A DNA stretch of 64,000 bases, taken from the NCBI GenBank assembly GCA_027491085.1, contig JAIXWW010000021.1, forward strand, positions 66,732 through 130,731. Direction: 5' to 3'. Under the pieces are notes generated by a model. That model saw nothing but the letters and a program-made list of their open reading frames with translations. It was not told where the DNA came from and made no database searches. Positions 28,823-32,687 of the stretch are shown in pieces. The position numbers were made by a program, and so were the translations under genes. The DNA is from Bacteroidota bacterium (GTDB taxonomy: Bacteria; Bacteroidota; Bacteroidia; UKL13-3). Position 1 is the stretch's first letter. Every line of letters starts with the position of its first letter.

Positions 28823-29179
28823 ATGAATTTTACAGAAGCAATAAAATTAGTTGAATCAGAATTTACAACAGGAAAAACATTTCCTACATTCAAAGCTGGT
28901 GACACTATTAATGTATATTACAAAATTAGAGAAGGCGCTAAAGAGCGTATTCAGCAATATCAAGGCGTTTGTTTACAACGCAGAAATGCTAGCATAGCAG
29001 AAACTTTTACAGTTCGTAAAATTTCTAATGGCGTTGGTGTTGAACGTATTTTCCCTTTATACAGCTTAAATATTGACAAAATAGAGGTGGTCAGCCGCGG
29101 AAAAGTTCGCAGGGCTCGTTTGTTCTACTTACGCGCTTTAACTGGTAAAGCTGCCAAAATTAAAGAAAAAAGAGGTTAG
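28823..29179 (+). CDS. rplS: 50S ribosomal protein L19
   Basis: From the internal ATG it reads [14 protein letters not shown]...[33 protein letters not shown]...TFTVRK...[10 protein letters not shown]. Confidence 0.9.
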
Positions 29180-29198
29180 TTTTTTCATAGTTAAATTG

Positions 29199-29234
29199 AA
29201 AGCCCTGATTCAGCAATGGATTGGGGTTTTTTTT
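29199..29234 (+). terminator. Probable rho-independent terminator after rplS
   Basis: agccctgatt...gattgggg forms a stem with G-U pairs and is followed by T8. Confidence 0.5.
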
Positions 29235-29287
29235 AATTACGAAATCCAATTAAAAAACTCAAATCATATAATTATAGAGAAAAAATT

Positions 29288-29882
29288 GAACCACATAGAA
29301 ACATAGACCACATAGTTTTTTGCAGTTTTTTATCCTATGTATTTATCTATTACAAATGATTTACGAAAAATATTCTAAAAAGTATCTTGATGATTTAACC
29401 TATGAAATTATAGGAGCAGCCATTGAAGTACATAAAGTTTTAGGGCCCGGATTATTAGAAAGTGTTTATCATCAGTGTTTAATTCATGAGTTAACTTTAA
29501 GAAAAATTCCCTTTAAAACAGAGGCAATTATTCCAATTGAATATAAAGATTTTGAACTTGAAACAAGTTTACGTTGTGATTTATATATTGATGATATTTT
29601 TGTGATTGAATTAAAAGCTATTGAATCCGTCTTACCAATACATGAAGCACAATTATTAACATACATGAAATTGCTTAAAGCACCCAAAGGTTTGATTTTA
29701 AACTTTAATGTGTTGAACATATTTAAAGAAGGTCAGAAAACTTTTGTAAATGAAATTTACAGAAACCTACCTGAATTGTAAAAATAATAATGCTAAGTAA
29801 TCAATGTTTCTATTAGGCTAAAAAATTCAATGAGTAATATAAAACAGATGAAATCTATGTTTTCTATGTTTCTATGTGGTTC
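29288..29882. mobile_element. Inverted-repeat-bounded cassette carrying only a GxxExxY gene (candidate small mobile or selfish element)
   Basis: gaaccacatagaaacatag at 29288-29306 is the perfect reverse complement of 29864-29882. The match extends to about 28 bp with 2 mismatches. Each arm consists of three (a/c)(a/c)acatag units. AAAAAATT occurs just outside both ends, at 29280-87 and within 29883-92. Confidence 0.45.
29356..29781 (+). CDS. GxxExxY protein (PD-(D/E)xK nuclease-like, PDDEXK_3 type)
   Basis: TYEIIGAAIEVHKVLGPGLLESVYHQCL contains G-L-L-E-S-V-Y. The downstream DLYIDDIFVIELKA matches D...E-x-K. The start at MIYEKYSK is preferred. Confidence 0.8.
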   Translation: MIYEKYSKKYLDDLTYEIIGAAIEVHKVLGPGLLESVYHQCLIHELTLRKIPFKTEAIIPIEYKDFELETSLRCDLYIDDIFVIELKAIESVLPIHEAQLLTYMKLLKAPKGLILNFNVLNIFKEGQKTFVNEIYRNLPEL

Positions 29883-30005
29883 AAAAAAAATTAACAAGTA
29901 GTAAAAAGATTCTTAGTATATAGTTCTGAGTGGTTCAGAAAAAATTGTGCATTTCAGTAATTAATTACATTATTTTATTCTACAATATTTAACTTCCCAA
30001 AGTTT

Positions 30006-32687
30006 ATGACAAAAGAAATTTCAAAAACATATTCACCACAATCTATTGAAGATAAGTGGTATAGCTACTGGTTAAGCAACAAATATTTTCATGCAAAACC
30101 TGATGAACGTGAACCATATAGCATTGTAATTCCTCCCCCAAATGTTACGGGCGTATTACACATGGGGCATATGTTAAATAATACTATTCAAGATGTATTG
30201 ACCCGTAGGGCAAGAATGCAAGGTAAAAACGCCTGCTGGGTACCTGGAACCGACCATGCGAGTATTGCCACGGAAGCCAAAGTAGTTCAAATGTTGCGTG
30301 AGCGTGGTATCAAAAAATCGGATTTAAGTAGAGAAGATTTCTTGAAATATGCTTGGGAATGGAAAGAAAAATATGGTGGAATTATTTTAGAACAATTAAA
30401 AAAATTAGGTGCGAGTTGTGATTGGGATAGAACCCGATTTACGATGGAACCTAGTTTAAGTGAAGCCGTTATTGATGTTTTTATTGACCTATACAACAAG
30501 GGCCTAATATACCGTGAACTTAGGATGGTAAATTGGGATCCTTTAGGAAAAACAGCCTTGAGCGATGAAGAAGTTATTTTTAAAGATGTAAATAGTAAAC
30601 TTTATTATATAAAATACCATTTAACTGAAAATTCGAAAATTGAAATTCAAAATTCGAATTTAGATATTAGTATTTCGGATTTTGTAGTTATAGCAACTAC
30701 TCGTCCTGAAACTATTTTGGCCGATGCGGCAATTTGTGTAAATCCGAACGATGAACGTTTTAAACATTTAATTGGCAAAAAAGCCTTAGTTCCTTTTATT
30801 AATCGTGAAATTGAAATTATTGCTGATGAATATGTGGCCATGGATTTTGGTACAGGTTGCTTAAAAGTTACACCTGCTCACGATAAAAACGACTATGATT
30901 TAGGAAAAAAACATGGTTTAGAAGTAATTGATATTTTAACAGAAGAAGGTTTTTTAAATGAAAAAGCGCAAGATGAACGCTATATAGGTAAAGACAGATT
31001 TGCGGTTAGAAAGCAAATTGCCATTGATTTAGAAGAAGCTGGATTTATTGAAAAAATAGAAGAATATAAGAACCAAGTTGGTACTAGCGAGAGAACAGGC
31101 GCAGTTATTGAACCACGTTTAACACTTCAGTGGTGGGTTGATATGAAAAAGTTTTTGGCTAAAAACCCTCAAGTGTTAGATGCGGTAATGAACGATGAAA
31201 TTAAGTTTCATCCTGTCAACATGAAGAACACTTACAAGCATTGGATTGACAATATTAAGGATTGGTGTATCAGTCGCCAACTTTGGTGGGGACAACAAAT
31301 TCCTGCATGGTACAGCGAGGATGGAAATTTTGTAGTTGCTAAAACTGAAGTTGAAGCTATCGAGAAATTTAAAATTCAACATCCAACATCCAACATTCAA
31401 CATCTAAAACAAGACGAAGATGTATTGGATACTTGGTTTAGTTCATGGCTTTGGCCAATCAGTGTTTTCGATGGTTTTAAAGAAGAAGGCAAAGAAGATA
31501 TTAAATATTTTTATCCTACAAACGATTTAGTTACTGCTCCGGAAATTATGTTCTTTTGGGTTGCTAGAATGATCATGGCTGGTTATGAATGGATGGGTCA
31601 AAAACCTTTTAGTAATGTTTATTATACCGGAATTGTACGTGATAAGCAACGCAGAAAGATGAGTAAATCTTTAGGTAATTCACCTGATCCTTTAGATTTA
31701 ATTACTCAATATGGTGCTGATGGTGTTCGTATGGGAATGCTTATTTGTAGCCCTGCGGGCAATGATATTTTATTTGACGAAAGCCAAGTAGAACAAGGTA
31801 GAAATTTTGCGAATAAAATTTGGAATGCATTCCGTTTGGTTAAAGGTTTAACCATTAAACCTGACGCTGAATTTGCGGCCGATTTATTGGCAAGTAATAA
31901 AATTTCGGAAAAATGGTTTGATGCTAGGTTCAATATTGCTTTAGCAGAAATAGAAGAAAAATGTAAAGATTATAAATTAAGTGAAGCCTTAATGATGATT
32001 TACAAACTGATTTGGGACGATTACTGTGCATGGTATTTAGAAATGATAAAACCAGTTTATGGTGAAGCATTGAACCAAAGCACTTATGACCAAACCGTAA
32101 TTTTCTTCGAAAAATTGATGTTGGTTCTACATCCGTTTATGCCGTTTATTACCGAGGAAATTTGGCAAGAAATAACTGAAAGAAAAGAAGGAGAGAGTAT
32201 TTGTGTTGCATCATATCCTGCTGTAGAGACGTATAATTATACTTCATTACAAAACACATTTGAAACCATTTCTAAAATACGCGAGCTTCGCAATAATAAA
32301 GGCATTAGTCCAAAGGAAGCATTTGAAATTGTTATCAAAACATCGCAAATTGAATTATACGAACCGTATCAGTTTTTAATTAAAAAATTGGCCAATGTTT
32401 CGAGCATATTATTCAATGAAGAAGCTCCTAATTATGTTTCCTTATCAGTTTCTACCGATCAAGTTTTTGTTAAATTAAATATTGAAATAGATGCTGTAGC
32501 TGAAGCTGAAAAAATTAATAAAGAAATTGAATACTTAATTGGCTTTATGGCAAGTGTAGATGTAAAATTAAGTAACGAAAAGTTTGTAGCCAATGCCAAA
32601 CCTGAATTAGTGGAAAAAGAACGCCAAAAGAAAGATGATGCTTTAGCAAAAATAGAAGTGTTAAAGCAAAGTTTAGCAGGATTGTAA
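30006..32687 (+). CDS. valS: Valine--tRNA ligase
   Basis: 893 aa. Motifs are the HIGH motif PPPNVTGVLHMGH, TTRPETILAD, QDEDVLDTWFSSW, and the KMSKS motif. A C-terminal coiled coil follows. Confidence 0.95.
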   Translation: MTKEISKTYSPQSIEDKWYSYWLSNKYFHAKPDEREPYSIVIPPPNVTGVLHMGHMLNNTIQDVLTRRARMQGKNACWVPGTDHASIATEAKVVQMLRERGIKKSDLSREDFLKYAWEWKEKYGGIILEQLKKLGASCDWDRTRFTMEPSLSEAVIDVFIDLYNKGLIYRELRMVNWDPLGKTALSDEEVIFKDVNSKLYYIKYHLTENSKIEIQNSNLDISISDFVVIATTRPETILADAAICVNPNDERFKHLIGKKALVPFINREIEIIADEYVAMDFGTGCLKVTPAHDKNDYDLGKKHGLEVIDILTEEGFLNEKAQDERYIGKDRFAVRKQIAIDLEEAGFIEKIEEYKNQVGTSERTGAVIEPRLTLQWWVDMKKFLAKNPQVLDAVMNDEIKFHPVNMKNTYKHWIDNIKDWCISRQLWWGQQIPAWYSEDGNFVVAKTEVEAIEKFKIQHPTSNIQHLKQDEDVLDTWFSSWLWPISVFDGFKEEGKEDIKYFYPTNDLVTAPEIMFFWVARMIMAGYEWMGQKPFSNVYYTGIVRDKQRRKMSKSLGNSPDPLDLITQYGADGVRMGMLICSPAGNDILFDESQVEQGRNFANKIWNAFRLVKGLTIKPDAEFAADLLASNKISEKWFDARFNIALAEIEEKCKDYKLSEALMMIYKLIWDDYCAWYLEMIKPVYGEALNQSTYDQTVIFFEKLMLVLHPFMPFITEEIWQEITERKEGESICVASYPAVETYNYTSLQNTFETISKIRELRNNKGISPKEAFEIVIKTSQIELYEPYQFLIKKLANVSSILFNEEAPNYVSLSVSTDQVFVKLNIEIDAVAEAEKINKEIEYLIGFMASVDVKLSNEKFVANAKPELVEKERQKKDDALAKIEVLKQSLAGL

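Follow-up and report, generated by a model that had tools for sequence, protein, structure and literature searches.

We analysed a 64,000-nt window of a Bacteroidota bacterium genome (GCA_027491085.1, UKL13-3; contig JAIXWW010000021.1), referred to as G000, in which a gene for a small GxxExxY protein lies between inverted arrays of a short repeat unit in the spacer separating rplS from valS. Gene and arms together are called the cassette, and gene and hairpins of the kind found here are called A-type. The window is this whole stretch, and its coordinates are used for the features of the locus, which include one open reading frame (ORF) of the cassette and the host genes on either side.

28823-29179, + strand: rplS (ribosomal protein L19), the upstream host gene (PF01245, E 5.7e-46).
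29198-29231, + strand: intrinsic terminator of rplS, a 15-pair stem followed by a T-run, conserved in all congeners; the cassette lies downstream of it.
29250-29981, no strand: segment without counterpart in the close cassette-less genome G004 (blastn breakpoints L004 1927 and 2660; window = L004 + 27322).
29280-29285, + strand: A-tract before the left arm, belonging to the repeat consensus and like the A/T run before (T)TGAACC at unrelated loci.
29286-29315, + strand: left arm, TTGAACC and then three ACATAG cores, with weaker complementarity up to 29333.
29316-29355, + strand: inner left flank, TTTTTTGCAG and then an A/T-rich leader (six orthologous spacers aligned by eye).
29356-29781, + strand: GxxExxY/PDDEXK_3 gene, 141 aa, with a predicted Cas4-like PD-(D/E)XK fold (PF13366, TIGR04256, AlphaFold2 model).
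29855-29884, + strand: right arm, three CTATGT cores and then GGTTCAA, with weaker complementarity from 29837.
29885-29897, + strand: A-rich right tail AAAAAATTAACAA, resembling the AAAAAT(C/T)A tail that forms part of a gene-less hairpin insert.
29919-29946, + strand: second, degenerate right arm with its own A-tail.
30006-32687, + strand: valS, the downstream host gene (893-aa ORF; N-terminus conserved at the matching position in congeners).

The 19-mer GAACCACATAGAAACATAG occurs on the forward strand at 29288-29306 and on the reverse strand at 29864-29882 with no mismatch. Around 0.02 matches would be expected by chance in the window and two matches arose in none of 100 shuffles, which rules out a chance origin of the inverted repeat. 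The full repeat spans 29286-29333 and 29837-29884 (48 nt, 83% complementarity), and the 30-nt arm cores within it (29286-29315 and 29855-29884) carry two mismatches. ACATAG cores stand at 29293-29298, 29301-29306 and 29310-29315 in the left arm, spaced by 8 and 9 nt, and are mirrored by CTATGT cores at 29855-29860, 29864-29869 and 29872-29877 in the right arm. A reading of the letters without database searches (the sequence-only reading) had described a GxxExxY gene enclosed by multi-unit inverted repeats between the rplS terminator and valS, and this description held, with three cores in each arm, 19 bp of perfect repeat and profile matches to PF13366 and TIGR04256. It had missed the second right arm, which is 82% identical to the first. 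Arm number varies, with three tandem right arms in the orthologous cassette of G010 and two left arms in that of G018; in G010 the third unit is altered in the same way (AAT) in both arms, which makes the repeat perfect over 32 bp. The A-tract sequence AAAAAATT lies at 29280-29287 and at 29885-29892, and in its right-hand copy two A's, which pair with the left TT, fall between the A-tract and the 19-bp core. Within the inner left flank, TTTTTTGCAG is kept in five of six orthologous cassettes and is replaced by TTTGTTGCAG in G009; this flank (29316-29355) may be the promoter region of the GxxExxY gene.

The ORF at 29356-29781 matched PF13366 (130.6 bits against a cut-off of 22, E 4.7e-38), its only Pfam match, and TIGR04256 GxxExxY (132.5 bits against a cut-off of 35, E 8.8e-39). 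The AlphaFold2 model (predicted local distance difference test 89, predicted template-modelling score 0.84) had Cas4 SSO0001 (4ic1) as its best structural match in the PDB (E 8e-4, query template-modelling score 0.50), with other Cas4/RecB/lambda-exonuclease-type nucleases as further matches. Matches to Cas4 profiles were weak, and the PDB searched by sequence returned no match to the 141-aa protein. Residues D75, E85, K87 and Y103 are invariant, and E35 and Q99 are present in at least 90% of sequences. As modelled, the protein has an intact PD-(D/E)XK core (D ... E-x-K) on a restriction-endonuclease-like, Cas4-like fold. Searches with Pfam and TIGR profiles and PHROGs found this PD-(D/E)XK domain alone and no recognised transposase family: there was no PHROG match, PF13366 as the sole Pfam match leaves no IS200-like HUH/Y1 transposase encoded, and the fold is that of PF13366, not that of the GIY-YIG nuclease cd10448.

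Among orthologues within the genus, the ratio of nonsynonymous to synonymous substitution rates (dN/dS) was 0.03-0.10, with dS up to 0.94, indicating strong purifying selection on a functional gene. The PF13366/GxxExxY family has at least 7,990 homologues at E <= 1e-10. It matched 8 of 72,556 plasmid records, none of them mobilizable, and none of 50,697 phage records, both collections being biased to other phyla; the family is essentially chromosomal. Our literature search found no paper tying PF13366/GxxExxY to repeats. A few homologues show apparent in-frame stop codons. One in G017, at 65% identity (L070, G017:C8:28289-28696), has an in-frame TGA, and four 44%-identity paralogues (G016, G009, G001 and G015) each have one in-frame TAG in the search alignment, which may only reflect the alignment running beyond the natural stop.

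The arms belong to a dispersed repeat family with the consensus (A/T-run)-[G/A]AACCACATAG-NN-ACATAG-NNN-ACATAG. The sequence-only reading had raised two expectations here, arm copies elsewhere in the genome and a like arrangement around other GxxExxY paralogues, and both were borne out. G000 holds three complete gene-less hairpins of ~65 nt (C4:37427-37492, C9:81767-81830 and C9:238890-238955) as well as solo arms (C10:52941, C17:101227 and C2:92462), and all three of its GxxExxY genes lie between inverted unit arrays, with a different unit for each gene (ACATAG, CACAGATT or TGATTT). Across 19 genus genomes there were 0 to 62 arm copies per genome at no more than one mismatch, and 0 with a reversed-pattern control. 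Other lineages of the genus use CACAGAG or CGCAGAT units. Many gene-less copies end in a T-run and are terminator-like.

We compared 26 distinct gene-less hairpins. Their ACATAG cores are conserved and their spacers are no more complementary between arms than chance; at spacer positions 20-22 the arm-to-arm identity was 0.23-0.27 against 0.43-0.47 expected. The two arms of a hairpin also differ systematically (GAACC...AAA against AAACC...[A/G]TT). Because the cores are conserved and the spacers do not pair, the alignments fit better with arm selection acting on a sequence motif, read by a lineage-specific factor, than on a stem alone. Since cassette lineages within one genome use different cores, the encoded protein would be the simplest candidate for that reader.

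Two larger repeat formats were also seen. In G009 the repeated unit exceeds the hairpin, with a conserved ~45-nt extension (GTTTTGTTTTTAAACAAGGACACATAGCATTGC) following GGTTCAA at many unrelated sites (L237, L243-L246). In Echinicola strongylocentroti CP030041 (L144) and in G021 (L233) the gene lies inside tandem whole-hairpin modules of ~100-130 nt each, at least two repeats on each side, rather than between one arm pair.

The rplS-valS arrangement is conserved in the genus, and gene and arms are present or absent there as one block. They occur in G000, G008, G014, G010, G018 and G009 and are absent from ten congeners (G001, G003, G004, G006, G007, G012, G013, G015, G016 and G017), as well as from the same spacer in G019 and G020, which belong to two other genera; G002, G005 and G011, where the spacer was unreadable, were left out. 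Cassette-less G004 is the sister of cassette-bearing G014 (support 99/100), and G009 is the sole cassette carrier of the other main clade. Homology to G004 breaks at 29249 and 29982, with 732 nt here against 101 nt there, and in this alignment the presence/absence difference extends beyond the arms. The spacers of cassette-less G004, G001, G006 and G015 hold a different hairpin made of TTCGAA units, and other empty spacers hold other fillers.

Six species carry the A-type gene, each genome with a single copy that is invariably at rplS-valS; it was never found at a second site in the genus. Its DNA identities to the G000 copy (99.8, 97.7, 92.7, 91.5 and 85.9%) follow the order of the flanking genes. 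Because the gene keeps to a single site, diverges in step with its flanks and has a dN/dS of 0.03-0.10, this copy is, on these comparisons, an old, vertically inherited and constrained resident, lost or replaced in several lineages, and not a recent jumper. No gene-less A-type hairpin was found at rplS-valS in any relative examined, which means that the gene did not arrive in an A-type hairpin already standing there. The spacer itself is a hot spot, and across the genus and family four or more unrelated fillers occupy it (L013, L018, L010, L011 and L023). One of these fillers is a ~200-nt element with GGTCATTCC motifs, and in another genus the spacer holds a gene-less hairpin of CCATAGAC units.

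The sequence-only reading had taken AAAAAATT, immediately outside both arms, for a possible 8-bp target duplication. The evidence on this came from gene-less copies. Gene-less copies at unrelated sites also have an A-run ahead of (T)TGAACC, and at a clean hairpin indel at C5:166865 of G000 the insert itself includes the A-rich tail that follows GGTTC (AAAAATCA); the cassette tail is of like kind. Since the A-run recurs elsewhere and the cassette shares this type of tail, AAAAAATT is part of the repeat and is ruled out as a target duplication. Nor did any relative have an empty rplS-valS site with a single AAAAAATT, as the duplication would have left; the TTCGAA-unit hairpin stood in its place. 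We considered AGTAATT(T) as an alternative and dropped it, since in A/T-rich DNA it does not exceed chance. G009 has exact copies on both sides and the other carriers have degenerate ones, and at empty sites a single copy lies in the loop of the TTCGAA hairpin; about 0.5 shared 7-mers are estimated by chance between two A/T-rich 40-nt flanks, and global alignments for it scattered across the spacer. With both candidates examined, no target duplication of the cassette was established.

The C5:166865 site is empty in ten genus genomes and filled in G008, G009 and G001 by an A-type hairpin of ~72 nt, flanked by a 7-bp direct repeat, ATAAAAT, that is single at the empty sites. The hairpin sits directly before a start codon, and the ATAAAAT repeat restores the AATAAAATG context (L133, L135 and L134 against L123). 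The flanks of the filled G008 allele are 90-94% identical to G000, against ~98% at rplS-valS (L007), and resemble another clade, which suggests recombination as the route by which the filled allele spread. Comparing G010 with G000, or G009 with four sisters using a concatenated-flank query, yielded no more clean direct repeats. Other hairpin sites are conserved between G010 and G000 at ~80-87% DNA identity and are therefore old. At 17 G009 hairpin sites compared with five congeners (four close sisters and G002; flanks mostly 80-98% identity), the interval length differed at most of the sites. Few hairpin loci had callable flanking ORFs, and no pattern was drawn for hairpin orientation relative to flanking genes.

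Beyond the genus, homologues at 55-72% identity occur in many Bacteroidota orders and in Acidobacteriota, Ignavibacteriota, Chlorobiota and Calditrichota, with unrelated genomic surroundings. We surveyed 80 loci with homologues at 55-69% identity. ACATAG/CTATGT was present on both sides within 330 nt at 52 of them, including loci from Acidobacteriota and Ignavibacteriota, and 38 of the 80 had two or more forward copies upstream together with two or more mirrored copies downstream. The other loci mostly use the variant units TATAAG, TAAAAG, CAAAAG or CATAAG, nearly all in one well-supported clade of the protein tree; those of Calditrichota and Chlorobiota have TATAAG. The unit label required 16 changes on the protein tree against 27.1 with shuffled labels, a number as low in 0 of 200 shuffles. 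This clustering is inflated by near-copies and vertical inheritance; the cross-phylum cases are the informative ones. The protein tree conflicts with host taxonomy, and across phyla protein lineage and core motif covary in these sequences.

Similar arms also surround genes that do not encode a nuclease. All five PF05635 genes of G000 (four-helix-bundle, '23S rRNA IVS protein', for intervening sequence) lie between inverted unit arrays, some of them within operons such as that for phenylacetate degradation (paa). The paa operon PF05635 gene lies between inverted GATTACAAAG-type arrays (L228:1370-1916; G000:C8:504116-504662), and gene-less GATTACAAAG-type arrays fill the next two intercistronic gaps of the operon (C8:505077-505106 and 505998-506044). 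Another PF05635 gene (L230, G000:C9:57804-58031) is framed by TTCGAA arrays, the unit that also fills cassette-less rplS-valS spacers (L005, L014 and L017). Since the two share this unit, the two cassette families compete for, or nest in, identical intergenic sites. In addition, a perfect 21-nt inverted repeat, AGCCACAGATTACACAGATTT, surrounds a 119-aa ORF at G000:C2:28402-28981. This ORF is on the opposite strand, has a signal-peptide-like start and is not PF13366, and the repeat is of the arm type (CACAGATT-type) of the GxxExxY paralogue on C2.

The explanation we favour, with roughly even confidence, is by analogy with REPIN-RAYT or Ssn-NTS: a resident Cas4-like nuclease paired with cognate, partly mobile hairpin repeats. 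The locus would then be the gene-bearing copy of a two-part system, a single-copy GxxExxY nuclease and its cognate short hairpin repeats, with the gene lying between arms of its own repeat as RAYT genes lie among repetitive extragenic palindromic (REP) sequences and ssnA genes among NTS repeats. We infer from the conservation of the cores that the protein binds or cuts them: it most likely recognises ACATAG sequence-specifically, the substrate being either duplex or folded single-stranded DNA, and may also cleave at these cores. In this picture gene-less hairpins are gained, lost and replaced in intergenic spacers, while the gene keeps to its place between rplS and valS and descends vertically in the genus; on longer time scales gene and arms are transferred between phyla as one block. 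The recognition might serve repeat propagation, self-regulation or DNA processing, for example the control of incoming single-stranded DNA. In favour of this explanation are the dispersed arm family, the separate unit around each GxxExxY gene of G000, the covariation of protein lineage and core, the conserved cores with unpaired spacers, the constrained resident gene with its intact nuclease core, the turnover of hairpins, the enrichment of the gene in repeat-rich genomes and the near-exclusively chromosomal occurrence of the family.

We asked how tight the partnership is across 119 genomes of the order, counting an A-like gene at >=50% identity and calling a genome repeat-rich at >=4 copies of CACATAGNNACATAG. 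Six of the 14 genomes with an A-like gene were repeat-rich and eight were not; for the 105 genomes without it, the numbers were 10 and 95, an enrichment of the gene in repeat-rich genomes (Fisher p = 0.0036, uncorrected for shared ancestry). Several observations weigh against a nuclease working on its own repeats. The link is loose, with 10 of the 16 repeat-rich genomes lacking the A-type gene, among them the near-complete G048, G097, G003 and G041 (99%) and G016 (94%), and with G014 having the gene and just three arm copies. Differences in hairpins between sister species are mostly replacements of one palindromic element by another, and clean insertions are rare; the hairpin copies differ in their spacers, so there was no recent burst. 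The PF05635 genes show that the architecture is not dependent on nuclease chemistry, and the covariation of protein lineage and core may be shared descent, gene and arms moving as a linked block without functional contact. For comparison, gene-repeat association in the Ssn system is 81% (PMC11893778). REPINs reportedly decay slowly after loss of the RAYT gene, and by analogy slow decay could explain the orphan hairpins here.

Much the same evidence can be arranged around a cassette that moves itself, its own nuclease cutting the arms to move or copy the unit, with gene-less hairpins as deletion derivatives resembling miniature inverted-repeat transposable elements (MITEs). The arms do look like multi-site transposon ends, being terminal inverted arrays of repeated sites; gene and arms come and go as one block among congeners, and the gene-plus-arm package recurs in several phyla in differing contexts. 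The 7-bp direct repeat at one gene-less hairpin indel would also be in keeping with transposition, and in the G018 and G009 cassettes loop sequence of gene-less hairpins is still present in the inner right flank, as internal deletion predicts. However, the gene is never at a second site in the genus, is single-copy with divergence tracking its flanks, and has a dN/dS below 0.1. No target duplication is demonstrable, AAAAAATT being part of the repeat and AGTAATT(T) at chance level. A 141-aa nuclease has no evident strand-transfer activity, and its gene is nearly absent from plasmid records and absent from phage records. The identical architecture around non-nuclease four-helix-bundle genes lowers the odds that the nuclease acts as its own transposase. 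We consider an autonomous selfish element unlikely. The sequence-only reading had suggested a selfish or mobile cassette; the block-wise presence and absence in relatives agrees with that suggestion, which is too strong for a single-copy gene held at one locus in six species under strong purifying selection.

The four-helix-bundle genes in like arms, inside operons such as paa, would also fit an RNA-level cassette resembling a 23S rRNA intervening sequence, in which the arms pair in a read-through transcript, RNase III cuts the stem and the embedded mRNA is released or insulated, making the insertion harmless to its neighbours. Such a stem-plus-ORF layout is known from ORF-bearing 23S rRNA intervening sequences (PMC4990558). 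The 631-nt unit folds with the arms as closing stem (minimum free energy -127.6 kcal/mol, z = -4.55), and the changed third unit shared by both G010 arms preserves a perfect 32-bp repeat. Yet the spacers of the hairpin arms are complementary at, and in places below, chance level, and the 6-nt cores are kept across phyla, a pattern for which a pure stem would have no need. The cassette also follows the rplS terminator, its own promoter probably lies inside the left arm, so that its own mRNA would lack that arm, and Rfam gave a sub-threshold chance match only and none above threshold. We regard this explanation as very doubtful. The sequence-only reading had also raised a large structured transcript that controls the gene, an idea weakened by arm spacers in which complementarity is not maintained. 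It is quite unlikely, too, that gene and arms have no functional link, the hairpins being host-used or parasitic palindromes (REP-like terminators or insulators) mobilised by other means, with small genes landing or surviving in their loops. Hairpins do persist in many genomes that lack the gene, and many gene-less copies have a terminator-like T-run at their end; unrelated cargo shares the architecture, including the 119-aa ORF inside its CACAGATT-type repeat, and the genus spacers are hot spots of mutually replacing palindromic elements. Random landing, however, predicts neither a unit motif that follows the protein lineage across phyla nor one that differs between paralogues of one genome, and relatives have no gene-less A-type hairpin at rplS-valS in which a gene could have landed.

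A nuclease paired with its own hairpins would most resemble REPIN-RAYT systems (PMC3116915; bioRxiv 10.1101/2021.07.10.451892). These share a single-copy gene flanked by its own inverted repeats, hairpin doublets of 60-100 nt dispersed in extragenic DNA, a repeat type particular to each gene lineage and near-complete absence of the gene from plasmids and phages. They differ in having a HUH/Y1 transposase where the protein here is a predicted Cas4-like PD-(D/E)XK nuclease, and a GTAG/CGTC-tagged palindrome where the arms here have three 6-bp cores. Hairpin populations are present here in many genomes without the gene, and transfer between phyla is evident from the protein tree, whereas RAYTs seldom change hosts. 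The Ssn family with its NTS/SRM repeats (GIY-YIG site-specific single-stranded DNA nucleases; PMC11893778) likewise combines a small single-domain nuclease gene with dispersed hairpin repeats on both sides; specificity in Ssn, and the unit here, varies with protein lineage, and in both the gene-repeat association is not strict. Unlike Ssn, the protein has a PD-(D/E)XK rather than a GIY-YIG fold, the repeats are multi-unit arrays and the association is weaker, the gene being present in 6 of 16 repeat-rich genomes against 81% for Ssn. In Ssn, cleavage and a role in transformation have been demonstrated, whereas cleavage by the GxxExxY protein is putative. Because the defining enzyme differs, the system is in neither the REPIN-RAYT nor the Ssn family.

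Two other kinds of element are partly similar. ORF-bearing 23S rRNA intervening sequences of Coxiella and Leptospira, with their S23p four-helix-bundle ORF (PMC4990558), also place a small ORF in an inverted-repeat stem and are sporadic among relatives, and G000 holds four-helix-bundle genes in like arms. The present locus, in contrast, is the rplS-valS spacer and not an rRNA gene, its cargo is a nuclease, and its arms keep sequence cores, not complementarity. MITEs and insertion sequences whose terminal inverted repeats have multi-site ends share terminal inverted repeats of repeated sites, short gene-less derivatives in intergenic DNA and, at one hairpin indel, a 7-bp flanking direct repeat. 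They differ in that no known transposase family is encoded here, the gene-bearing element has one copy, which is immobile at the level of the genus, and no duplication of the cassette target is demonstrable.

A broader proposal, which we think rather doubtful, is that unit-array hairpins form a large, prokaryote-wide and so far undescribed class of elements, read sequence-specifically by GxxExxY nucleases and, in parallel, by the four-helix-bundle 'IVS proteins'. A minimal Cas4-like nuclease would then be the sole element-encoded enzyme, driving propagation of its cognate hairpins and occasionally of itself by a mechanism unlike that of known transposases.

PF13366/GxxExxY is a family without assigned function, and this locus ties the gene to a defined motif, ACATAG cores in three-unit inverted arrays. 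If the pairing of nuclease and repeat is real, it would add a third enzyme fold to the nuclease-with-cognate-repeat systems, alongside HUH in RAYT and GIY-YIG in Ssn, and would provide small sequence-specific nucleases whose specificities have diversified in nature. It would also account for a large share of the repeats in intergenic DNA of Bacteroidota and other phyla.

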